Positions 10,409-47,729 of a stretch of 64,000 nt of DNA are shown in pieces. This DNA comes from Tortispora ganteri (lineage: Eukaryota): positions 62,001 to 126,000 of the forward strand of contig PPNB01000016.1 of the NCBI GenBank assembly GCA_003707115.1, read 5' to 3'. The notes under the pieces are model-generated. The model did no database searches. It was not told the DNA's origin and saw only the letters and a program-made list of their open reading frames with translations. A program made the translations under genes and the position numbers. How positions within the stretch are numbered: position 1 is the stretch's first letter; the number at the start of each line of letters is the position of its first letter.

Positions 10409-12631
10409 ATGAACATGAGCAGCAAATCTTACATGCGAAGTAAGAGCAAGCAGGCATGCGAACAGTGTAGAGCGGCGAAAGTGAGATGTATTCGATCGGA
10501 AAGCTCATATGACAAAGATCCGTGCGATCGATGTATAAAGTTGAGTCAGAATTGTATATACGAAGTACATCGAAGATCACGCACAAAGAAACACAAGAAT
10601 AATGAAGTAAGTGCTCTTTTGCAAGAAATAAATGATCTGAAGCAACAATTACGGGCGAAAGAAGGACTTGCACGTACAAACAGCAGTGAGTCGTTAGATG
10701 CATTGGCGCCTATGCCTTTCACACCGCCAAGCGGGAGCGACCCTTCTACTTTTATATCTGGTATATTACCCTCCTTCACAAAACCGGGCGATTCTCGTCA
10801 GTTTGCGCTGGACGAAAAGCTACAGGATATTCCGGAAGAACTGGTGCAAGGACAGGCTGCCCGACTGACTGGATACATAGGAAGAAATCGTGCAATTTTC
10901 GAAGCTGTTGAACGGTGGGATGTAATATCTTACCGTCATTTTAAGACACATTCATTGCTTACAGATGATCTAATAAGTGAAGGCGGTGCCTATAAGTCTT
11001 TAGAATTATACAAGAAGCATTATTATGCCGCATTACCACTTGTCCGTCTCAATCACTTATCGTTTGAGCAGATGCGCCAGCACTTTCCGCTTACACTCGA
11101 TGCCGTGATACTCGCGGTAGAACGATACGTGTTACCTGATAATAGCGCTGCTGCCCAAAAGCTAGTGTGCGACAACTATGGCCAACTTCTTGCCCTAGAA
11201 GGCGAAAAGAACCTGGACCTTTTGCAGGCGCTAATGATCACCAGCACGTGGTACACATTTCCCGAATTTCACAATAGACTGCGTTTCCACACATTCACAG
11301 CCGCTGCTCGTGTCATATCTGACAGTCTGATGTTACCATCTACAAAGCATATTTCTGTTTTGCTTATACCTTCGTCTCTCGATCCGTTCGAACCTGACCA
11401 TATTGACACTTTCCAGTCAAGTAATGCCAGCTCCAATGGCACCGGAAATATCAACAGCCCGTCAGGCCCCGTGACGAGCCAAATCCCTTCTGTGTCTGAT
11501 AACCAGAAGAATTCACCAGCTATAGATATATCTAGCGACGTGATACATAGCATAAAGCGGCTTCACCTGTCGGTATATGCTATTAACGTGATACTAGCGC
11601 TGCCTTTTCAGCATTCAGTTTGTTGCCAATGGTCAGCAAGCTTGGCTGAATCTTATGATTTTATCAGTGCAAGAAAGCATCTTACGTATGACGACAAAGC
11701 TTTACTCGAATTCATCGATATAGCGAAGTGTGCTGAGCAAATACTTCATACTATGCAGTGCTCTAAACATAAAAGCTCTGTAGTTATGAGCTTTTCAGAA
11801 CAGTATGCTGATGCAGTTGTTCTATGTTTGGCCGAACGTCTCGATCAAAGGAAACCTGTCTATAATAACAGTGAAGTTCTCTTCCTTACTAATCTACTTG
11901 TGCAGTTATCTTCCTATAGGTTCTGCCTTACAGTGCTTTCTGAACGATTACCCGAACACCCTGAAGAATTTGCGACATTTGTTATGTATTCTCGTAAATT
12001 CTATCAGGTTTATTTGCGGGAACTGAAATATTTTAATGAAGTACAGCCATCAGTGCTTACAAGACTACCTACTTTACTATTTGGCCAGAACATTGGTATG
12101 ATGTCGTGCTACGTCTCTTTGAAGCGAATGTTTTGTAGGAAAGCGCCCGAAATATACAACTCATTCAGCGCTTTGCATGCAGAAATTGACAATGCGCTCG
12201 ATCAAATGAGAAATAATATGAATTCACTTAGCGATTCAGATCCTAGATGTCTTCATTTGCAGAAATTTGCGTTCCTTTACCATTTCATCATCGATATCAG
12301 CAAATGGCCAGACAGCTATCCTGGGTCGATTCTTGAACAAGTTGCCGCTGTATTCAAACGCATAAAGCTACAGAATCCTAGAGCAGCGGAACTTGCAACA
12401 GCACATATATACAAATCCACTTGTCTGTCTATTCCGCAGTTTGATACAATTGCACCGACACAGAGCAATGGAACCGTGCCCTCCGAACCGCTACCCGAAC
12501 CGATACCTATGGAAGGAGGCCTTAATAACTTGAATGAACATACGCTTGATTGGCTGCTTTCCGACTTAGATACGTTTGATTTTAAGTCTTCGGAACTGCT
12601 ATTTGGCGGTCAGTTTCCTCAATCCTTGTGA
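10409..12631 (+). CDS. Zn(II)2Cys6 fungal transcription factor
   Basis: ACEQCRAAKVRC...PCDRCIKLSQNC binuclear cluster, a coiled-coil dimerisation segment, a middle homology-like region and an acidic C-terminal tail. Confidence 0.9.
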   Translation: MNMSSKSYMRSKSKQACEQCRAAKVRCIRSESSYDKDPCDRCIKLSQNCIYEVHRRSRTKKHKNNEVSALLQEINDLKQQLRAKEGLARTNSSESLDALAPMPFTPPSGSDPSTFISGILPSFTKPGDSRQFALDEKLQDIPEELVQGQAARLTGYIGRNRAIFEAVERWDVISYRHFKTHSLLTDDLISEGGAYKSLELYKKHYYAALPLVRLNHLSFEQMRQHFPLTLDAVILAVERYVLPDNSAAAQKLVCDNYGQLLALEGEKNLDLLQALMITSTWYTFPEFHNRLRFHTFTAAARVISDSLMLPSTKHISVLLIPSSLDPFEPDHIDTFQSSNASSNGTGNINSPSGPVTSQIPSVSDNQKNSPAIDISSDVIHSIKRLHLSVYAINVILALPFQHSVCCQWSASLAESYDFISARKHLTYDDKALLEFIDIAKCAEQILHTMQCSKHKSSVVMSFSEQYADAVVLCLAERLDQRKPVYNNSEVLFLTNLLVQLSSYRFCLTVLSERLPEHPEEFATFVMYSRKFYQVYLRELKYFNEVQPSVLTRLPTLLFGQNIGMMSCYVSLKRMFCRKAPEIYNSFSALHAEIDNALDQMRNNMNSLSDSDPRCLHLQKFAFLYHFIIDISKWPDSYPGSILEQVAAVFKRIKLQNPRAAELATAHIYKSTCLSIPQFDTIAPTQSNGTVPSEPLPEPIPMEGGLNNLNEHTLDWLLSDLDTFDFKSSELLFGGQFPQSL

Positions 12632-12756
12632 CTGGTCCTTCCTCTGCAAAGTCCCAGAAAACACTTCCTCAAACATTCTACTTGTTGCACCAACACTACT
12701 AGCTCGCTTTTTGTACATTTCTCCCTTTTTTATTATGATTTGACCTTAATAATAAT

Positions 12757-13275
12757 ATGATTTTTTTAGATTTAGCAAGATTATTATTGGGCATGGTTGT
12801 TTTGCTCATTAGCATATCTTATGCGCGCACGGGTTCGCTGACGTGGGGTTGCGAAAGCCGATGGCTATATCCTAGATATGTGATGTTTCGGCTATTCAGC
12901 GGGCCTCAAGTACTCACAGATGACGAACTCGCTTTTTACGATGGCCGAAATGGTTCGCGAATCTTCCTTGCGCTGAACGGCACAGTTTACGACGTGAGCG
13001 CACGCCCAGAAATGTATGGACCGGGAAGCACGTACTCAATGCTCGCGGCACGTGATGCAACAAGGGCTTTCGTGAATGGCTGCATGCGAGATAACGCACA
13101 GCTTACATATGATCTTCGAGGATTAGACCCAGTTAAAGCCGAAGAGATAATACGCAAGTGGAAGGAATTCTTTGACAGCAAACCACGGTACTGGGTGGTG
13201 GGACGAGTGGAGCACGATTTTTCGAAGCTCGACTGTGATCCGCCACCTTTATGTGATCAGCCGACGTATTTCTAA
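12757..13275 (+). CDS. Membrane-anchored cytochrome b5-like heme/steroid-binding protein (MAPR family)
   Basis: N-terminal TM segment, then LAFYDG...IFLALNGTVYDVS...YGPGSTYSMLAARDATRAF MAPR motif. Confidence 0.9.
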   Translation: MIFLDLARLLLGMVVLLISISYARTGSLTWGCESRWLYPRYVMFRLFSGPQVLTDDELAFYDGRNGSRIFLALNGTVYDVSARPEMYGPGSTYSMLAARDATRAFVNGCMRDNAQLTYDLRGLDPVKAEEIIRKWKEFFDSKPRYWVVGRVEHDFSKLDCDPPPLCDQPTYF

Positions 13276-14517
13276 TCGAGAAACTCTAGAAACTCATTTG
13301 CAGTCAGAGGCGCGGTAATTAGTTTAGCAGGCTCGAGAACCAAGCTGGTAGCGGACAGCGTGAGTCTGAACAAACCTTGAGTCACTATACTAAACGTAGT
13401 ATCATTAGTCTGTGATTGCGACAGCCTCTGACGTTTAAACTTGTGGTCGTCAAATTTTGGTTCATTTTCCGGATCTGCATCAGTGAGTCCGGTAGATTTG
13501 TATACTATCGATAACGGTGTGTCTGGTGCCGAATATGAAATGATACTGGCTAGCTTCTCTTGGGTCGATGTAATTTCACTGCACTGTTCTAAGCTGATAT
13601 TTGTAAATGGCCTTGCATACTTCAATGCGTGCTGTTTGTCGACGTAAACAATGAGTCTGCGTGTATAAGTGTCGATATAGCGACGCTTGTAATGCAAAGT
13701 GCAGTCTGGACCGATGCTGATGCAGTCTGGGTACAGGTCAAGCAGACCAAGTGTAATTTCTTCCAACCCGGTAGTGGGATCGATTGTGATGTTGTGTTTG
13801 ACTAGTTTTTGTTCAAGTCCTCTGAAACGATAGTACCTACACTCCTTTTGGAGCGCGTTCCTGTGTGAGTCTGATTGGATATGCAGTGGTTCGTTGCGCG
13901 CAAGTTTGATGAGATCGGAGAAAAGAGCTGCGCTTCTGTTTGTGACTTCTGGTGCCTTCAATACAGGTGGCCGCAACAAAGCGGTGGGGATTTCGTCATC
14001 AGTGAGGCGCGCGTCTTTCACGGGGTGTGCAAAGTAGAAGGCAAAGGCCAGATGAAAGAAGTTCGGTGCATCACCCGGACCATTGAACAGGTCTTTAGAA
14101 ATTTTAAATTGTGAATCACCAATAATTACATATGTTTCTTTCTGTTTGAGAAGCGTGATTAGGTTTCGTAAACGATAATAGAGGGCATCAGCGTAGAGCT
14201 GGAAGAACTCTTCTGCGGTGGTAGCAGCAATATTGTAGCCGCGCAGATAATCAGCTATGATGCTGAATACTCGCGGCGATCTATCGAGTGTAAGAACAGG
14301 CGGGTTCGTAATATTTGTATCAAAGAAATTAGTGAAATAGGAAGGGGCATCTGATGATAAAGATGCGCCACTGATAATTTGTGAGTACTAAGGATCGCTG
14401 CAAGTTGTGTTTTTCGACTTACCTTAACTTGAACGTCTGTTCACCGACTTGGATCGTATAGACTTTGCTGTGTGGTAAAATTTCCGGTATAACTGATTGT
14501 TGTATTGCTTCATCCAT
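13272..14517 (-). CDS. BTB/POZ-domain protein, YLR108C/YDR132C-like; 2 exons (14517-14423, 14370-13272), 397 aa
   Basis: The ORF track gives only the 3' part. Manual reading gives MDEAIQQSVIPEILPHSKVYTIQVGEQTFKLS|GASLSSDAPSYFTNFF...LDRSPRVFSIIADYLRGY. A 52-nt intron 14371-14422 (GTAAGT...TACTCAC...CAG) keeps the frame. A second BTB-like unit is present (NRSAALFSDL...ECRYYRFRGLEQ). Confidence 0.88.
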
Positions 14518-14518
14518 A

Positions 14519-15435
14519 ATGGGTAAAAGTAGTAAAGATAAGAGAGACTTGTACTATCGGTAAGTAGAAGGGAGGAGCTAAGTATGAAGTGCGAAAAGAG
14601 GGTGGTGCTAACAACAATTATCAGCAAGGCCAAAGAAAACGGTTGGCGTGCACGTTCGGCGTTTAAATTATTGCAATTAAATGAAGAATTTGATTTGTTT
14701 AAAAATGTTACAAGAGTTGTCGATTTGTGTGCCGCTCCGGGTTCCTGGTCACAAGTGCTCTCACGTCAAGTCTATGAAAATTGTTCCGAAGATAATAAAC
14801 CAATCATCGTTTCTGTTGATTTGCAACCTATTGCCCCTCTTCCTGGTGTAATAACGCTTCAGGCTGATATAACGCATCCAAGTACTCCGGGGAGGATTGT
14901 AGACTTGTTTGAAGGCAAACTAGCTGATCTAGTGGTATCTGACGGTGCTCCTGATGTTACCGGCTTGCACGATCTTGACGAATATGTCCAGGCACAGCTT
15001 ATTCTTGCTGCTGTCAAACTTGCCACCGGTCTTCTCACACCTGGAGGCACATTTGTTGCTAAAATATTCAGAGGCAGAGATATCGATCTTATGTACGCAC
15101 AACTAGGACTGCTTTTCGAGAAAGTCACTTGCGCCAAACCGCGCAGTTCTCGCCTTTCTTCGCTCGAGGCTTTTGTCGTCTGTGAGAACTACATCCCACG
15201 ACCAGGCTGGTCGCCTTTAGATCTTCCTGCTGTCGGTCAAGACCTCTCGTTACAGCCTGTCTCTGAAAGAAGTGTAGCTCCGTTCCTTGCATGTGGCGAT
15301 CTCAGCTCTTACGATGCCGATGCTACGTACACGCGACCACCTTCTTCGACAAGTCTAGATCCTGTACAGGCACCAACGGCGCCGCCATACAAACACGCCC
15401 TGGACCTACGACGATCAGGTAAGCTCCACGGATGA
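14519..15435 (+). CDS. TRM7: tRNA (C32/N34) 2'-O-methyltransferase; 2 exons (14519-14559, 14625-15435)
   Basis: The spliced N-terminus [32 protein letters not shown] matches the conserved Trm7 start. 65-nt intron 14560-14624 (GTAAGT...TGCTAAC...CAG). Motifs [14 protein letters not shown] and [14 protein letters not shown]. Confidence 0.95.
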
Positions 15436-15510
15436 ACTGTATACGTACTCAATTTACGCTAATCATTCAATAGGTCATCGTTATTTGGTCTATGCGGACA
15501 TTTGAGTCAT

Positions 15511-16638
15511 CTATGCGATCTTTTTGCTCGCAGATGTGAATCCAATACCCTTTACTGAAATCATAAGGTCATTACTTTCTGTGTCTTCATCGTCGCTATC
15601 GGCATCGCTATCGTCTATGGGGCCCTGAGACTCTTTGATGATAATCTGCTGGCCTGTGAATGCGTATATATCGCGTAACAGCTGCACGGTCTTGTCATCG
15701 ATCACGTCCCGACCAACTCGAATCCGTCCAACATCTTCTTTCCCTAGTATCATGAACGTCAAAGCTAGAGCAATCTGATTTCTTCCGACAACGCCACCAA
15801 GTGAGATATCATACAAGAGTTGCTTAGCAACTTTTTCACCGAGATCTTCTGGCACCGCCCCAGCTGCGCCAACGTCTTCTGTGGAATAGCACCAGCCGGA
15901 TTTAGTTTCTGCCACTAAAAGTATACCGTAGCCGGGCGATTTGCCGGCGTCTTCACCGCGAGCTACATCTGAGTATATAAATGTTTCGCATTCCGTTACT
16001 TTCAGCACCTCCCTGGCGGCATTGATCATCCTGTTGACGATAGTGGGGCTTACTCTCGTTGAGTATGCAATACCCCTTATTTTGAGTATTTTAGGAGTAG
16101 TTGTAGCATGTAGTGTCTTGGGCTGCAATACCAGATGTGGGGCAGAAAAGACAACTTCACCTCCTCCAAGTGGTGGTGATCCACGACGCACTATACGCAA
16201 TTCCATCCGATCTATTCCAAACTTTTGCACAACTGGAAATAGTGACGTACGAATCATATCAACTGAATTGTCGATCTCATTCGATGATACGCCAGTGAAT
16301 GTGATTTTCATAGCAGTTTTGCAAAATGGTGCTAGGTACAGCATAGGTTCTAGAAAATAGCCTATACCGCGAGACGTAGGACAAGTGTGGTTATGGGTAC
16401 CGCCAATAAGCATTCCGGGACGGTAAATAACAGTTGTACCTGTATAAGAAATATCTACGACACTGCCGTTAGTAATACGATCAAGCAGTCTGATGAATGA
16501 TATTTCATAGTCTTTTAAACCTGGTTCGAGAAGATCGGAGCGGATTTTCTCGACTTTCAATGGTTTTCCCAGTAAAGTGGCTAGCACCAATCTCTGACGA
16601 AGATATTCATGACCTTGAAATGTCAACATCGGCGCCAT
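15511..16638 (-). CDS. RCL1: RNA 3'-terminal phosphate cyclase-like protein (18S rRNA processing)
   Basis: LRQRLVLATLLGKPLKVEKIRSD, PGLKDYEISFIRLL, RRGSPPLGGGEV and KIRGIAYSTRVSP. Confidence 0.95.
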   Translation of the reverse strand: MAPMLTFQGHEYLRQRLVLATLLGKPLKVEKIRSDLLEPGLKDYEISFIRLLDRITNGSVVDISYTGTTVIYRPGMLIGGTHNHTCPTSRGIGYFLEPMLYLAPFCKTAMKITFTGVSSNEIDNSVDMIRTSLFPVVQKFGIDRMELRIVRRGSPPLGGGEVVFSAPHLVLQPKTLHATTTPKILKIRGIAYSTRVSPTIVNRMINAAREVLKVTECETFIYSDVARGEDAGKSPGYGILLVAETKSGWCYSTEDVGAAGAVPEDLGEKVAKQLLYDISLGGVVGRNQIALALTFMILGKEDVGRIRVGRDVIDDKTVQLLRDIYAFTGQQIIIKESQGPIDDSDADSDDEDTESNDLMISVKGIGFTSASKKIA

Positions 16639-28451: not shown

Positions 28452-28883
28452 TTAGTCGTCAAGTACTAGGAATGTGCCTTGACGGAATTTATCATCATTG
28501 TATACGCTTTGACCTACTTCCCAGCCAGGTACATCTTTCATGATTTCCTTCTCTTTGGCCAAGCGGATGTAGTGCTTGCGTACAAGATCTCTATCGAGTT
28601 CTGCGGAAAGGGCAGGAAGAAGATAAATACGGGACCAGGTCTTTTCGCGTTCCAATTCACGTCGTTCTTCTAGGCCTTTGTAGTGGCGATAGAAGCCGTA
28701 TGCTGATATGGCGCCAATAATGGCTAAAACTGTAGAGGGTCTAAATCCTCGAGCCGGTAGGTTTCGCTGGCGGTCAGGTTAGCTATATACTTCAGAATAT
28801 ATGTAAACAATGCAATGTGCAAAACTTACCCTCCATTGAACAGGCTCGTAACCTCCTTTCGGTGGAAGATCTTGACCTGGCAT
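28452..28883 (-). CDS. NDUFA13: Mitochondrial complex I accessory subunit NDUFA13/GRIM-19 (NB6M); 2 exons (28883-28830, 28766-28452)
   Basis: Spliced product MPGQDLPPKGGYEPVQWR|RNLPARGFRP...EREKTWSRIYLLPAL...IMKDVPGWEVGQSVY. 63-nt intron 28767-28829 (GTAAGT...AGCTAAC...CAG). Confidence 0.93.
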
Positions 28884-29091: not shown

Positions 29092-29964
29092 ATGACGCTT
29101 GAAAATTTGATGGAAAGGCATCCGGGCATGTCAAAAAACGCTTGGAAGAGGTATTTGAAGGAAAAGCGGTGGGAAGAGACAAAGGATCAACGGCGAGAGC
29201 AACGCAAAGAGAAATTACGCTTAAAGAAACAAGAACGAAAACAGCAACAGGCCAACTTGAATGAAGCCAATAATATCGATAGCACTGTAATTCAACATCG
29301 CAATAGACCTGGAAGAAGGGTATTAGAACCCGATGATTTTGCTCCCTATACGCTGGTAATTGACTGCGCATTTGATGAACTAATGATTCCTAAGGAGGTG
29401 GTATCGCTTAGTGCGCAGATTGTCCGTGCATATTCAGAAAATCGCAAGATTGAACACCCTCTACATTTATCAGTCACTTCTTTCAATGGCAGATTAAAGG
29501 AGCGGTTCGAAACTAATATGAAAGGCTCCTACACGTTGTGGAAAGACATCACATTCAGTTCTGACCCTTATGAGATTCCCGAAGACAAATCGTCGTTAGT
29601 ATACTTGTCATCAGACTCTCCACATATAATAAACGCGCTAGAACCCAACAAAACTTATATTATAGGAGGCATAGTTGACAAGGGTCGTTATAAAAATCTT
29701 TGTCTCGACAAGGCAACGAAACAAGGAATAGCAACTGCAAAACTTCCCATATCAGAGTACATTGAGGTCTCTGGACGAAAAGTATTAACTACAAACCATG
29801 TAGTAGAAATTCTGTTAAAATGGTCCGAACTAAAAGATTGGAAACAGGCTTTCATGGCAGTTATACCACCTCGCAAGATTAAGACGCAGCAAGAAATTCC
29901 GGCTAACGTACTCACACCCGAGACCAGATCCGAGAATGAAGCTGAAAACAATACCACTGAATAA
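29092..29964 (+). CDS. TRM10: tRNA m1G9 methyltransferase
   Basis: MSKNAWKR...W, VIDCAFDELM, VYLSSDS, YIIGGIVDKGRYKNLC and RKVLTTNHVVEI. Confidence 0.95.
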   Translation: MTLENLMERHPGMSKNAWKRYLKEKRWEETKDQRREQRKEKLRLKKQERKQQQANLNEANNIDSTVIQHRNRPGRRVLEPDDFAPYTLVIDCAFDELMIPKEVVSLSAQIVRAYSENRKIEHPLHLSVTSFNGRLKERFETNMKGSYTLWKDITFSSDPYEIPEDKSSLVYLSSDSPHIINALEPNKTYIIGGIVDKGRYKNLCLDKATKQGIATAKLPISEYIEVSGRKVLTTNHVVEILLKWSELKDWKQAFMAVIPPRKIKTQQEIPANVLTPETRSENEAENNTTE

Positions 29965-29971
29965 AAATATC

Positions 29972-31510
29972 TTAGAAATCTAATCCCTCAGATTCGCGTG
30001 AACGTTTAAGCGATCGTTCAGCTTTATGCTGTTCATTATAGAACTTTCGGAAGTAGTCAACGTAAGGGCGTAAACTAGTGTTTTCATAGGTATTTTCAGA
30101 AGCGCGTTTTTCTTGCACTTCTTTTAAAAGCTCAGTGGCGATAGGTACTGAGCTAGGGTCGAATGTATCGATCTGGTCTGTAGGTATTGGCACGCAGATT
30201 TTCTGAGTCTTCGGATGTATGCAAAAAGGAGATTTTAACAAATGGTTTAGTTTCGTCGAAACATTCTCATCAAGACGCGGAGATAAATAGTAGAACATGA
30301 TATCTTGTTTCGCTTCAAGCAAAGCGTTTCTGTCAAGAGTCTTTAAGTCTTTTGATTTCGCAATTTCGTCGATATCCTTCCATTTAGCTAAACTTGAGCG
30401 ACCAGGCTCATCGAGCCATTTTTGTTTAAGTCGTTGCTGGAATGGGCCATTATTTGGTAGTCTAGAAAGTAGCTGCTTTTCTGTACCTGGGGCCTCCCAG
30501 GGATTTTGGCCTTGAAGAACGACAGGTACAAAGTTGGATTTCAAGATTTCCAGAGTATGACTAAGCATAGGATGCAGCGGACGAGGAAGCTTGAGCTTAC
30601 CTTGACTTACTCCACGGAAGATGTTGACGTAGTCAACAATGCTGCGTCGTGCACTGTCCGAGAGGAAGCGCGCGCGGTAGTCTGATATCCATGCATGAAC
30701 GCCACGACGGCCTGAGAATACCCATAGAATGAATTTGAAACCAAAGTCGTGACGAAGAACAGAATCAATAACATGCATGGCAACTCGAACGAATCCCCAG
30801 CACTTATGGCAGATATCTGTTCCTGAGCAGCAGGATCGGATCTCGTCGTAATCTGTCATATCGATATCAAAGATAAGCTCTTTTTGTATTGGCTGAATTG
30901 ATTCTTTCTGGTATTTAGCGCGGTTTATAAGATCGATCGAGTATACAGGTCCAATCTCAAACCGCGCTGGATTAAGAAAAGATACTTCCTTCTTGAATGA
31001 TTCTGGTGTTTCGTAGCTGCGGTAGCGAGTGTACGCGCCATTATGAAGTTCCATGGCAATTTCGCGCTTGCTAAAATCGGGAGTCGGGTCAGGAGCATGG
31101 TTGAGCCACTGAAAAACAGGTCTGAAGGGAAACAAGTGCTTGTAATACATACTAGTAATATTTTCAAAGTCCTGTGGTAAAGGTTTAGATCTCATAACAG
31201 GTACAGGCCTAGCTGGCGTTACTGGTGTAGCTGCAACAGGTGTAATCAGGGCAGGTACAGCTGCAGCAGGCGATTTTGGCTGTACACTTTTGTTTAATTG
31301 TGAGTTTGATGCGCTTGCGCCTTGGAATATACGTAAGTCATCCAAATCCATATCATCAAAGACACCGTCATCAATATCGAAGTCGTCAAAGTCGTCATCT
31401 TTAGTGCCCCTATTAACCGGAGACGTTACCGGTGAACCTGTTGATGAAGAAGGAGGTTCAAGAGTCATTTGTGCAATTTTTGATTGAGAGTTTGGAGAAA
31501 CTACTGGCAT
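29972..31510 (-). CDS. PRI1: DNA primase small (catalytic) subunit
   Basis: KELIFDIDMTDYD, WVFSGRRGVHAWI and NHLLKSPFCIHPKT. Confidence 0.96.
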   Translation of the reverse strand: MPVVSPNSQSKIAQMTLEPPSSSTGSPVTSPVNRGTKDDDFDDFDIDDGVFDDMDLDDLRIFQGASASNSQLNKSVQPKSPAAAVPALITPVAATPVTPARPVPVMRSKPLPQDFENITSMYYKHLFPFRPVFQWLNHAPDPTPDFSKREIAMELHNGAYTRYRSYETPESFKKEVSFLNPARFEIGPVYSIDLINRAKYQKESIQPIQKELIFDIDMTDYDEIRSCCSGTDICHKCWGFVRVAMHVIDSVLRHDFGFKFILWVFSGRRGVHAWISDYRARFLSDSARRSIVDYVNIFRGVSQGKLKLPRPLHPMLSHTLEILKSNFVPVVLQGQNPWEAPGTEKQLLSRLPNNGPFQQRLKQKWLDEPGRSSLAKWKDIDEIAKSKDLKTLDRNALLEAKQDIMFYYLSPRLDENVSTKLNHLLKSPFCIHPKTQKICVPIPTDQIDTFDPSSVPIATELLKEVQEKRASENTYENTSLRPYVDYFRKFYNEQHKAERSLKRSRESEGLDF

Positions 31511-45901: not shown

Positions 45902-47729
45902 TTGTGTCTGAAGTAATAATGACGCGTCTTGGTCACACAACCGGCAATAGGAAAGAGCAGTTTGAGAAGGTTGTTCTTTTTAATAGCAGGTCCCTTCCAC
46001 GCTTTTCCACACTTATTTATGTTCTTCACTGTAATTTCAACAACAGCACTAGATCCTCACGTATATGACGCATATATGTGCTGCAGGGGCAATTATATCA
46101 CTTTTTAGATCACTTCGTGATAGTGATTGTGAGTTGTCAATGCTAAATCAAATACTACGTTGCAGAAAATATAAGAATCTTCCTACTTCAGTAGCACACT
46201 AGCCACACAATCTTGATATATTGCTATATTATAGATTTAAATAATCACTGCTAATTTCGAAAAATTGTCTTTATAGAACCAAATGCAGTCAAATCGGGCA
46301 TCAGATAGTACGCTGAACAATAGCAGAGCAAAGTGAATAAAGCCCGGTATGGAACTTGTAACGGCGCCTCCTATTGGCTGAAAAGATTACGTTGTGTACC
46401 CTTATTCCTAATTTAAACCCCTATCATTGGTCAGATACGTGCGTTGCCCTAAACCCTGACCGAGAAAACGCAAAACCCTAACCTGATTGTCGGTGTTTGT
46501 GATTGGTCACATTTAGGTTAAACCTTAAATTTGTTTTTCTTGCTATTAGTTGGCTAACTTTCAACTGTGTCTGCATTAGTTAAGCGATTGATGTTTATTG
46601 GTCGGTTGTAATTAAGCGACACTTTATTGTACATGCAAGCATATGTTGTGGTATATTACTCTATCTAAGTATAGGATCGAATGATAAAATATCTTTTTTT
46701 TACGTAAGCATAGATTTGCTTCAGTACTGCTCTTTTGAAATCTTTCTGTTGCTTATAAGTGGCGTTAATAGCGTTAATAGTTGAATGCAGAAATTAAGTG
46801 ATCGATTATGCAAGTTGATTGACAATCACAATATATCAAGATCGTACACTAAAACAATGCAATTATTTATTTGAAGTTTCAGTTATCTTGCTGCTACTCA
46901 TTGGTCCAGTATGAAAAGTAATGAGAAAGATCTGAGCCATTGTAATCCATTGTACCTAACATTGTTTCTGCATCGATTTCGTGAGGATATCATTAATTGG
47001 CAATTGATAAAGAGTAATGGCAGTAATCTTGTCTCTGCATATGATATTACACAATGTGGTACAAAAAAGAGTAAATTATATACTGTTAAGGTCCATTACA
47101 ACTAATTACGTGTCTGCATTGCCATCATGGAACATGGTCTTGCTTCAACAGGTTATTGTATATCATAGCAGTAGCTATATTGCCGTATATCATTATAGCA
47201 CTCTTTGTATTCGGTATTACGTAGTCAAATTTTGAAACTAGACGTTCTCACTTAGATTTCGTGTCTTTAGAAAGTTGATTGCTGATATGTAAGAGACACA
47301 AAGAACTTAGACCCCTCTTTGGTATTACACACAATCTTATATAACTCAATGGAACTATTGCACCACTTCCATTACTATTTGGTGCCAAAGGTCTTATTGG
47401 TCGGTTTTCTCATGAATTCCGTAGATCCTGGTCGGTCGAAGAGTGCCTGAAATAACACTTGAGGCCATAGGTGGTCTGTAAGCTGTATATTCAATAGCTC
47501 AAAAGATCAGTAAGCTCCTGTCATTGGTCCTGGGGGTTTTCATCTTTTAGATGAGTACATTCCTATATGCGTTAATTCGCGTTTCGCTTCGCGTTTTTGA
47601 TAAATGACATATTGTCGATCGTAGGGCGTAAAGGTTGTTATGCCAACTTAGGTGCACGGAGCTTTTCATAAAATTGCATGCTTTTTCGAAATCGCAATCT
47701 TCAATTCTTGCTTGATACCACGCAACGAT

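Follow-up and report, generated by a model that had tools for sequence, protein, structure and literature searches.

Start codons one base apart in the divergent TRM7 and BTB genes of the budding-yeast relative Tortispora ganteri, and a predicted crossing of their transcription starts

Bidirectional gene pairs are defined by 5′ ends lying less than 1 kb apart (the available part of PMC2648788). In a human head-to-head overlapping pair, two protein-coding genes on opposite strands have facing 5′ ends, and their leaders are sense and antisense to each other, with possible interference; the overlap occurs in particular long isoforms, and non-coding DNA is ample. In S. pombe, the promoters of the divergent genes msh3 and dph3 are thought to overlap, and changes made to one gene can perturb its neighbour; the available part of PMC5668335 gives a distance of 268 bp between their ATGs, all of it 5′ UTR. 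In Encephalitozoon cuniculi, an intracellular parasite with a genome of 2.9 Mb, gene density is very high, regulatory signals and transcript ends are placed inside neighbouring genes, and 120 of the 129 apparent head-to-head overlaps of coding sequences disappeared after start-codon correction (PMC2803860, in the part available). A full-text search of the literature found no account of divergent genes in a eukaryote whose start codons are separated by a few bases, nor any work on transcription in Tortispora, and the part of PMC3730340 at hand gives no value for a minimum divergent spacer.

We report here on such a pair, found in a stretch of 64,000 nucleotides of a T. ganteri contig, hereafter the window. 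It consists of TRM7, on the plus strand, and of a BTB gene of the YDR132C family, on the minus strand. The pair and its neighbours are as follows (positions in the window).

12757 to 13275, plus strand: cytochrome-b5-like gene (Pfam Cyt-b5, E=5.3e-9); the stop codon (13273-13275) shares 2 nt with that of the BTB gene
13272 to 14370, minus strand: BTB exon 2, including the stop codon (13274-13272); BTB_2 domain (C-terminal half) and remainder of the protein
14371 to 14422, minus strand: predicted BTB intron (52 nt, phase 2), GTAAGT ... ACTCAC ... AATTATCAG; 97-148 nt upstream of the TRM7 ATG
14423 to 14517, minus strand: BTB exon 1 (95 nt), with a sole in-frame ATG (14517-14515) and the conserved IPEILPH motif; the BTB fold begins here with its first strand
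14518, no strand: spacer base A, in the local sequence CCAT-A-ATGG
14519 to 14559, plus strand: TRM7 exon 1 (41 nt), with the ATG (14519-14521) and the conserved Trm7 N-terminus
14560 to 14624, plus strand: predicted TRM7 intron (65 nt, phase 2), GTAAGT ... GCTAAC ... AATTATCAG; 43-107 nt upstream of the BTB ATG
14625 to 15435, plus strand: TRM7 exon 2, including the stop codon (15433-15435); FtsJ methyltransferase domain
15511 to 16638, minus strand: RCL1-like gene of the RNA 3′-phosphate cyclase family (Pfam RTC, E=6.4e-50; RTC_insert, E=8.9e-30)
14371 to 14379 (left arm) and 14616 to 14624 (right arm), no strand: perfect inverted repeat of 9 nt, at the 3′ ends of the BTB and TRM7 introns

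The two genes are adjacent, on opposite strands, with ATGs at 14517 (minus) and 14519 (plus), which makes them a bidirectional pair under the above definition, and an extreme variant of the known head-to-head overlapping pairs. They differ from the human pair in that only 1 bp separates the ATGs, so that any leader would be antisense to a coding exon or an intron of the partner, and in that the overlap is deduced. Compared to the 268 bp of msh3-dph3, a single base leaves no DNA dedicated to a promoter or a leader. The resemblance to E. cuniculi lies in the density of genes, in a relative of budding yeasts this time, and, unlike most of the overlaps annotated in that parasite, the TRM7 and BTB starts are fixed by homology, as described below.

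Direct reading of the sequence gave CAT at 14515-14517, A at 14518 and ATG at 14519-14521, and the head-to-head arrangement with one base between the start codons, as announced in a preliminary description of this DNA, is thus confirmed. As a result of the one-base spacer, the A at position −3 of each ATG is the middle base of the start codon of the partner; a G is found at +4 for both. The window has nine further divergent pairs, whose first methionine codons are 147 to 1828 bp apart, as computed from uncurated coordinates and leaving aside one doubtful pair (42282/42371), and the 1-bp spacing is an outlier among them. The genome is nevertheless very compact: ORFs of at least 100 codons cover ∼85% of the window, and, among convergent genes, the stop codons share 2 nt in one case and are separated by 7 nt in another. 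The RCL1-like gene, upstream of the BTB gene and on the same strand, has its stop codon 75 nt from that of TRM7. Ancient synteny of the two genes was not detected, as none of 80 fungal metagenome loci containing a BTB orthologue had a Trm7-like gene (E≤1e-5), the upstream flank reaching at least 1 kb in 55 of these loci, at least 2 kb in 46 and at least 5 kb in 34.

The TRM7 product is, from its homology, a tRNA 2′-O-methyltransferase of the Trm7/FtsJ family: the FtsJ domain (Pfam PF01728, E=4.5e-52) is matched over profile positions 1-181 of 181. The predicted spliced product has 283 residues, the same length as the Trm7 protein of T. caseinolytica, the budding yeast that gives the closest database match, with which it is collinear, and the two are 95% identical over exon 2. 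Its beginning is the MGK.SKDKRD-type N-terminus common to the 4 Trm7 orthologues fetched, which agrees with the start proposed initially. Upstream of this ATG, inspection by eye showed an in-frame stop at 57 nt and no intervening ATG. We also considered, and rejected, a further TRM7 intron near 15419-15473, since the unspliced frame ends like the T. caseinolytica protein and both proteins have 283 residues.

The BTB gene is predicted to encode a YDR132C-like fungal protein with a BTB_2 (T1-type BTB/POZ) domain. Homologues numbered 323 at E≤0.001, several of them named after YDR132C by their sources. Exon 2 alone matched Pfam BTB_2 (PF02214) with E=1.2e-6 over profile positions 44-89, while in the T. 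caseinolytica orthologue the match covers positions 3-91, from residue 13. Exon 2 is 86% identical to this orthologue, and exon 1 agrees with the T. caseinolytica model at 18 of 22 N-terminal residues. The N-terminal block IP.ILPH ... IQ.G ... SSDAPSYF is collinear with 17 aligned homologues, and the alignment is gapless at the exon junction. The spliced product has 397 residues, of which the only methionine is the first. Upstream of its ATG the frame is open only to 14553, with a stop at 14556-14554 and no further ATG, so that the claim that exon 1 has no other in-frame methionine before the conserved motif stands. Of 69 other fungal loci, 67 likewise have an in-frame ATG in the same open frame, just 5′ of the motif. 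From these comparisons both start codons are fixed by homology, and both genes, with intact ORFs and the above identities of 95% and 86% to the T. caseinolytica proteins, are most likely functional.

Each gene was said to have an early short intron with a common 3′ end, and this holds. Both predicted introns have GT-AG ends and a branch-like site, their removal restores frame and homology, without splicing a stop is met immediately, and both end in AATTATCAG. The window contains two copies of this 9-mer and no others, a count which is unremarkable (0.94 copies expected, and at least 2 in 26 of 100 shuffles). Of the 19 occurrences of its 7-nt core in the window, none but the two described here falls in the 250 nt before any of 29 starts, which gives no enrichment at other promoters. 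The near-identical ends could reflect a common origin, one intron being a copy of its counterpart, or else a shared upstream motif that is read on the strand of the partner. Of 76 other fungal loci, 62 have no interruption at the site of the BTB intron, the position of which appears therefore to be lineage-specific. Six candidate introns of 52-75 nt were counted in the window, only some of them verified by homology. Purines make up 72% of the TRM7 intron, read on its own strand, versus 35-54% in five other candidate introns of the GTAAGT type.

We then considered what DNA might serve as leader and promoter. The ATG-free run upstream of the start is 156 nt for TRM7 and 290 nt for BTB, compared to a median of ∼114 nt for 26 other starts, and the chance that a random position reaches such runs is 7.4% and 0.83%, respectively. 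Leaders are thus possible on both strands. When the encoded proteins were held fixed and synonymous codons resampled, the depletion in upstream ATGs was not significant (TRM7 leader, P of 0.045-0.14; BTB leader, P of 0.29-0.44). In the 120 nt preceding the BTB ATG, pyrimidines amount to 72% on the BTB strand, the highest value among 28 starts, in part because the Trm7 N-terminus encoded there is conserved and rich in Lys, Arg and Asp. No TATA(A/T)A element is present on either strand between 14100 and 14950. A scan for promoters and terminators of the bacterial type, irrelevant to a yeast, gave no result, and scans of the whole window against Rfam (gathering thresholds) and for tRNAs gave no matches.

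With both starts fixed, the leader and promoter of each gene must lie inside the partner gene, unless the mRNAs are nearly leaderless. This alternative was already put forward in the preliminary description; its premises and its logic hold, but it omitted a third option, discussed below. On balance we think it probable, judging from the sequence, that the head-to-head arrangement of TRM7 and BTB is genuine and both genes functional, with no intergenic DNA and with transcription starts that cross inside one another. The TRM7 mRNA would start in exon 1 or in the intron of BTB, and the BTB mRNA in exon 1, in the intron or early in exon 2 of TRM7. Crossed in this manner, the two 5′ leaders would be mutually antisense over some tens of bases, and the pre-initiation complex of each gene would be assembled on transcribed DNA of the other. 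The A at −3 and the G at +4 would offer a good context to scanning ribosomes on either strand. Lastly, the BTB gene does not have the long N-terminal extension of many relatives, and may have lost it; this loss is probably what made the two starts abut. Counting against this arrangement are the non-significant depletion in upstream ATGs, the lack of a TATA element in the region scanned, and the fact that crossed promoters would lead to polymerase collisions, and would call for low expression or alternating use. The transcriptional interference that had been evoked between the two genes is, for its part, pure conjecture.

The two short 5′-proximal introns would be the sole non-coding DNA of the unit, and would be located ∼40-150 nt upstream of the ATG of the partner. 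Being non-coding and so positioned, they are the likeliest home of core-promoter or leader sequences. That they might double as promoters had been suggested at the outset, and the pyrimidine-rich region upstream of BTB, the purine-rich TRM7 intron, the lineage-specific position of the BTB intron and the like ends of the two introns do hint faintly in this direction; the lack of a TATA element in the region scanned, of motif enrichment and of a significant ATG depletion speaks against it. A stronger version, in which each intron serves the partner gene as a promoter or leader module, and was kept (or, for BTB, gained at a lineage-specific site) because it contains that partner's core promoter or leader, seems to us doubtful. 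If true, the pair would form a symmetric, self-contained two-gene cassette of 2.2 kb without intergenic DNA.

Other explanations of the locus have to be weighed against crossed starts. Both genes might be transcribed outwards from a point-like bidirectional zone at the junction, with 5′ UTRs of a few bases and hardly any overlap. Such nearly leaderless mRNAs would suit the very compact genome and the A at −3 and G at +4 of both ATGs, and 5′ UTRs of less than 7 nt were mapped by RACE in E. cuniculi (PMC2803860, in the part available). Other genes of the window, in contrast, have normal-looking spacers, of at least 147 bp, and ATG-free leads with a median of ∼114 nt, and comparison by eye of the sequences immediately upstream of the listed starts revealed no common motif. 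Very short leaders are poorly translated in budding yeasts. The pre-initiation complexes would, moreover, still sit inside the partner gene, and we regard this explanation as unlikely. The omitted third option is that the BTB mRNA could come from far upstream, either from a minus-strand non-coding first exon near the spacer between TRM7 and RCL1 or from read-through of RCL1, and have TRM7 spliced out, the acceptor lying just 5′ of the ATG at 14517. TRM7 would then be nested within a 5′-UTR intron, and only the TRM7 promoter would be inside the BTB gene. RCL1 is directly upstream and on the BTB strand, a donor-like GTACGT is found at 15448, in the 75-nt spacer between TRM7 and RCL1, and a branch-like TACTTAC precedes AG acceptors at 14555-14554 and 14549-14548. 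This TACTTAC is, however, nothing but the 5′ splice site of TRM7 in reverse complement, and the intron required would measure ∼900 nt, versus 52-75 nt for the six candidate introns of the window, which makes the nested arrangement quite improbable in our opinion.

It may also be that the BTB start is mis-assigned, the true N-terminus being encoded by an unseen upstream exon and the ATG at 14517 being internal or intronic. N-terminal leads are very short in some relatives, and extensions of up to ∼130 residues are found in many. The public T. caseinolytica model, partial at both ends, begins exactly at the conserved motif, a point matched in the window by a possible acceptor that would open an exon at 14492; further partial public models likewise begin near the motif, which fits models limited by homology. 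No plausible upstream coding exon was found among 14 donor-like sites scanned, most of them non-consensus. All combinations that keep the frame would need introns of 487-1758 nt, against 52-75 nt for the candidate introns of the window, and the one consensus-like donor outside the RCL1 ORF, GTACGT at 15330, an intron of 823-838 nt. Given, in addition, that start and motif share an exon in 67 of the 69 fungal loci mentioned above, a mis-assigned start is very unlikely. Finally, the junction might be an assembly error, or result from a recent, private deletion of the intergenic region that silenced one of the genes, and its nearly palindromic sequence lends some colour to this. Both ORFs are nonetheless complete from the first codon, and for a mis-join to fall precisely where two start codons meet would be most surprising; the BTB ORF runs uninterrupted for 397 codons, with 86% identity to that of T. 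caseinolytica, and TRM7 is a conserved housekeeping gene. We attach hardly any weight to an artefact or a dead gene.

Crossed starts between two functional genes remain, then, the reading that we prefer. For annotation, the consequence is that such starts will escape gene callers which forbid touching or overlapping models, or which count on a promoter between genes. If real, and if both genes are expressed, the TRM7-BTB pair would represent a natural limiting case, in a relative of budding yeasts, in which polymerase II promoters and 5′ leaders are contained wholly within the exons and introns of the partner gene. It would permit tests of how crossed starts coexist, of whether short introns can function as promoters, and of how far coding sequences tolerate a second, regulatory reading.

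Direct reading of the window places CAT at 14515-14517, a single A at 14518 and ATG at 14519-14521, confirming that the start codons of the YDR132C-family BTB/POZ gene (BTB, minus strand) and of the tRNA 2′-O-methyltransferase gene TRM7 (plus strand) are one base apart, as stated in the preliminary description. The early short intron assigned there to each gene, of 65 nt in TRM7 and 52 nt in BTB, was likewise read in the window. The two genes are organised as follows.

From ATG 14519-14521, plus strand: TRM7 exon 1, 41 nt, ending at the GTAAGT donor (14560)
14560-14624, plus strand: TRM7 intron, GTAAGT donor and GCTAAC branch site
14625 to stop codon 15433-15435, plus strand: TRM7 exon 2, FtsJ domain
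From ATG at 14517, minus strand: BTB exon 1, 95 nt, ending at the GTAAGT donor (14422)
14422-14371, minus strand: BTB intron, GTAAGT donor
14370 to stop codon 13274-13272, minus strand: BTB exon 2, second half of BTB_2

The spliced TRM7 product is 283 aa long. Its FtsJ domain is complete in exon 2 (Pfam, E=4.5e-52), which shares 95% identity with Trm7 from Tortispora caseinolytica (also 283 aa), and the N-terminal motif encoded by exon 1 also opens 4 of the 4 orthologues fetched, in agreement with the earlier match to the Trm7 N-terminus. Because the orthologue N-termini match, and because the frame is closed by a stop 57 nt before the ATG with no other ATG in between (read by eye), the TRM7 start is unambiguous.

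The spliced BTB product has 397 aa. Taken by itself, exon 2 has a Pfam BTB_2 match confined to the second half of the domain (profile positions 44-89); the T. caseinolytica orthologue covers positions 3-91, from residue 13, and its N-terminus shares 18 of 22 residues with the translated exon 1. An intact BTB fold thus requires exon 1, which places the start upstream of where that fold begins. Exon 1 had been said to hold no alternative in-frame Met, and this was borne out: the sole Met of the spliced protein is residue 1, and no ATG occurs in the 12 further open codons upstream, up to the stop at 14556-14554. All frame-compatible options for upstream coding exons were enumerated on the minus strand to 16700, with 14 donor-like sites. 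The compatible combinations were rejected, as all require introns of 487-1758 nt versus 52-75 nt locally (six candidate introns in the window). Half of them are the ORF of the RCL1-like gene (minus strand, beyond TRM7) itself, and the sole candidate outside that ORF to have a consensus-like donor, GTACGT at 15330, would require an intron of 823-838 nt.

Among 80 fungal metagenome loci encoding BTB relatives, the match reaches the IP.ILP motif in 69, and 67 of these have an in-frame ATG directly upstream of the motif in the same open frame, so that a start in the same exon is the norm for the family. The median distance from the motif to the nearest such ATG is 39 codons, with only 4-17 codons in a few loci; the 9-codon lead of BTB is short without being unique. 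ATG 14517 is thus very probably the BTB start, and homology gives good support to the models of the two genes as well as to their start codons. The public T. caseinolytica BTB model (P0003) is partial at both ends and begins exactly at the conserved motif, so that neither its true start nor the distance to TRM7 is annotated.

In the CAT-N-ATG configuration, the A at −3 of each ATG is the middle base of the other start codon, and a G directly follows ATG on both strands. One base is the shortest spacer giving both strands this favourable context of A at −3 and a following G. The arrangement is an outlier even in its own compact genome (42% G+C in the window, with ∼85% of it taken up by ORFs of at least 100 codons), since the nine other divergent pairs keep start spacers of 147, 176, 255, 317, 352, 386, 446, 1033 and 1828 bp, taken from uncurated first-Met coordinates and one intron-corrected start, a doubtful pair (42282/42371) being omitted. 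The largest gap in the window, 1.8 kb between divergent genes (45902-47729), is without ORF of at least 100 codons. Tandem spacers are as short as ∼125 bp (12631 to 12757). Downstream of BTB, its stop (TAG, 13274-13272) overlaps by 2 nt that of a convergent cytochrome-b5-like gene (plus strand, TAA 13273-13275), so that the 3′ UTRs of the two must enter each other's coding sequence. At 29962-29974, the stops of a tRNA m1G methyltransferase gene (plus strand) and a convergent DNA primase small-subunit gene (minus strand) are 7 nt apart. A small minus-strand gene (ORF 28452-28778) has, within 28767-28836, a candidate 7-nt first exon, with ATG 28836-28834, followed straight by a candidate 63-nt GTAAGT ... 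GCTAAC ... CAG intron. No tRNA and no Rfam family was found in the whole 64 kb.

Once both starts are fixed, the pair could have any of three architectures, and the mechanistic reasoning of the preliminary description, with promoters inside the partner gene or almost leaderless mRNAs, is logically sound as a prediction. Near-leaderless mRNAs initiated at the junction are possible; 5′ UTRs of <7 nt are described in the highly compacted genome of Encephalitozoon cuniculi (PMC2803860). Possible too is a BTB mRNA coming from far upstream, by same-strand read-through from RCL1 or by splicing across TRM7; this third option requires an intron more than 10 times the local norm. We lean towards crossed start sites, where each leader would be antisense to the first exon or intron of the partner, because the other genes of the window look ordinary (spacers of at least 147 bp, ATG-free leads of median ∼114 nt), and because the ATG-free leads of TRM7 (156 nt) and BTB (290 nt) are at least as long as theirs, a length that is not significant when the protein sequences are kept constant (P=0.045-0.14 and 0.29-0.44). 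With crossed start sites, the introns, 43-148 nt upstream of the partner ATG, would occupy the expected place of leader or core-promoter sequence: the BTB intron lies 97-148 nt upstream of the TRM7 ATG, and the TRM7 intron 43-107 nt upstream of the BTB ATG.

Non-coding DNA within the 2.2-kb unit is limited to these introns. Their common 3′ end, already noticed, is a perfect 9-nt inverted pair, and a second inverted pair, of 11 nt (91%), comprises their 5′ splice sites. Global alignment of the two scores 9.0, the highest of the 15 pairs among six candidate introns (next, 5.5); 0.45% of 2000 interior shuffles reach this score, a value that overstates the case because shuffling destroys the branch site. 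The 9-mer itself is not enriched in the window (2 seen versus 0.94 expected, at least 2 in 26 of 100 shuffles). Purines account for 72% of the TRM7 intron on its own strand, against 35-54% in five other GTAAGT-type candidates. Of 76 other fungal loci, 62 show no interruption at the BTB intron site, and 49 of these 62 have an apparent break, seemingly an intron, eight codons further downstream; the position of the BTB intron is therefore lineage-specific, which points to a gain or shift in this lineage.

The earlier proposal that the introns double as promoters drew mixed evidence: composition, the lineage-specific site and the likeness of the introns speak weakly for it, but motif enrichment, TATA elements and the significance of the ATG-free leads do not. 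On the BTB strand, pyrimidines make up 72% of the 120 nt preceding the BTB ATG, more than at any other of the 28 starts compared (61-68% at about ten other genes), in part because the Trm7 N-terminus is conserved and rich in Lys, Arg and Asp. The 7-nt core of the 9-mer has 19 copies in the window, without enrichment upstream of other starts; only the two of the pair are found in the 250 nt preceding any of 29 starts. No TATA(A/T)A was found on either strand of 14100-14950. The case for introns acting as promoters is weak and partly contradicted, and it seems improbable that each intron houses the promoter of the partner gene, the BTB intron having arisen or persisted for this purpose.

Both proteins find their best matches in T. 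caseinolytica NRRL Y-17796 (identity 86% for BTB, 95% for TRM7), and the second-best BTB match has 45% identity, so that the window must stem from a close relative of that species. Both T. caseinolytica orthologues are listed with a longest contig of 2,610,682 nt, which fits linkage but does not prove it. No Trm7-like gene was found in the flanks of the 80 fungal BTB loci (upstream sequence of at least 1 kb in 55 and at least 2 kb in 46), and the adjacency is not ancient.

A full-text literature search returned no case among eukaryotes of divergent genes whose start codons are separated by a few bases, an absence that is not proof, and nothing on transcription in Tortispora. Divergent pairs whose promoters overlap are known in yeasts; as described in PMC5668335, the Schizosaccharomyces pombe pair msh3-dph3 has probably overlapping promoters, with 268 bp between ATGs compared to 1 bp here. 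For E. cuniculi, 129 apparent CDS overlaps (head-to-head or head-to-tail) are reported, of which 120 vanished on correction of start codons (PMC2803860), a caution that does not apply to TRM7/BTB, as homology fixes both starts. The pair is an extreme form of an already known arrangement rather than a new kind.
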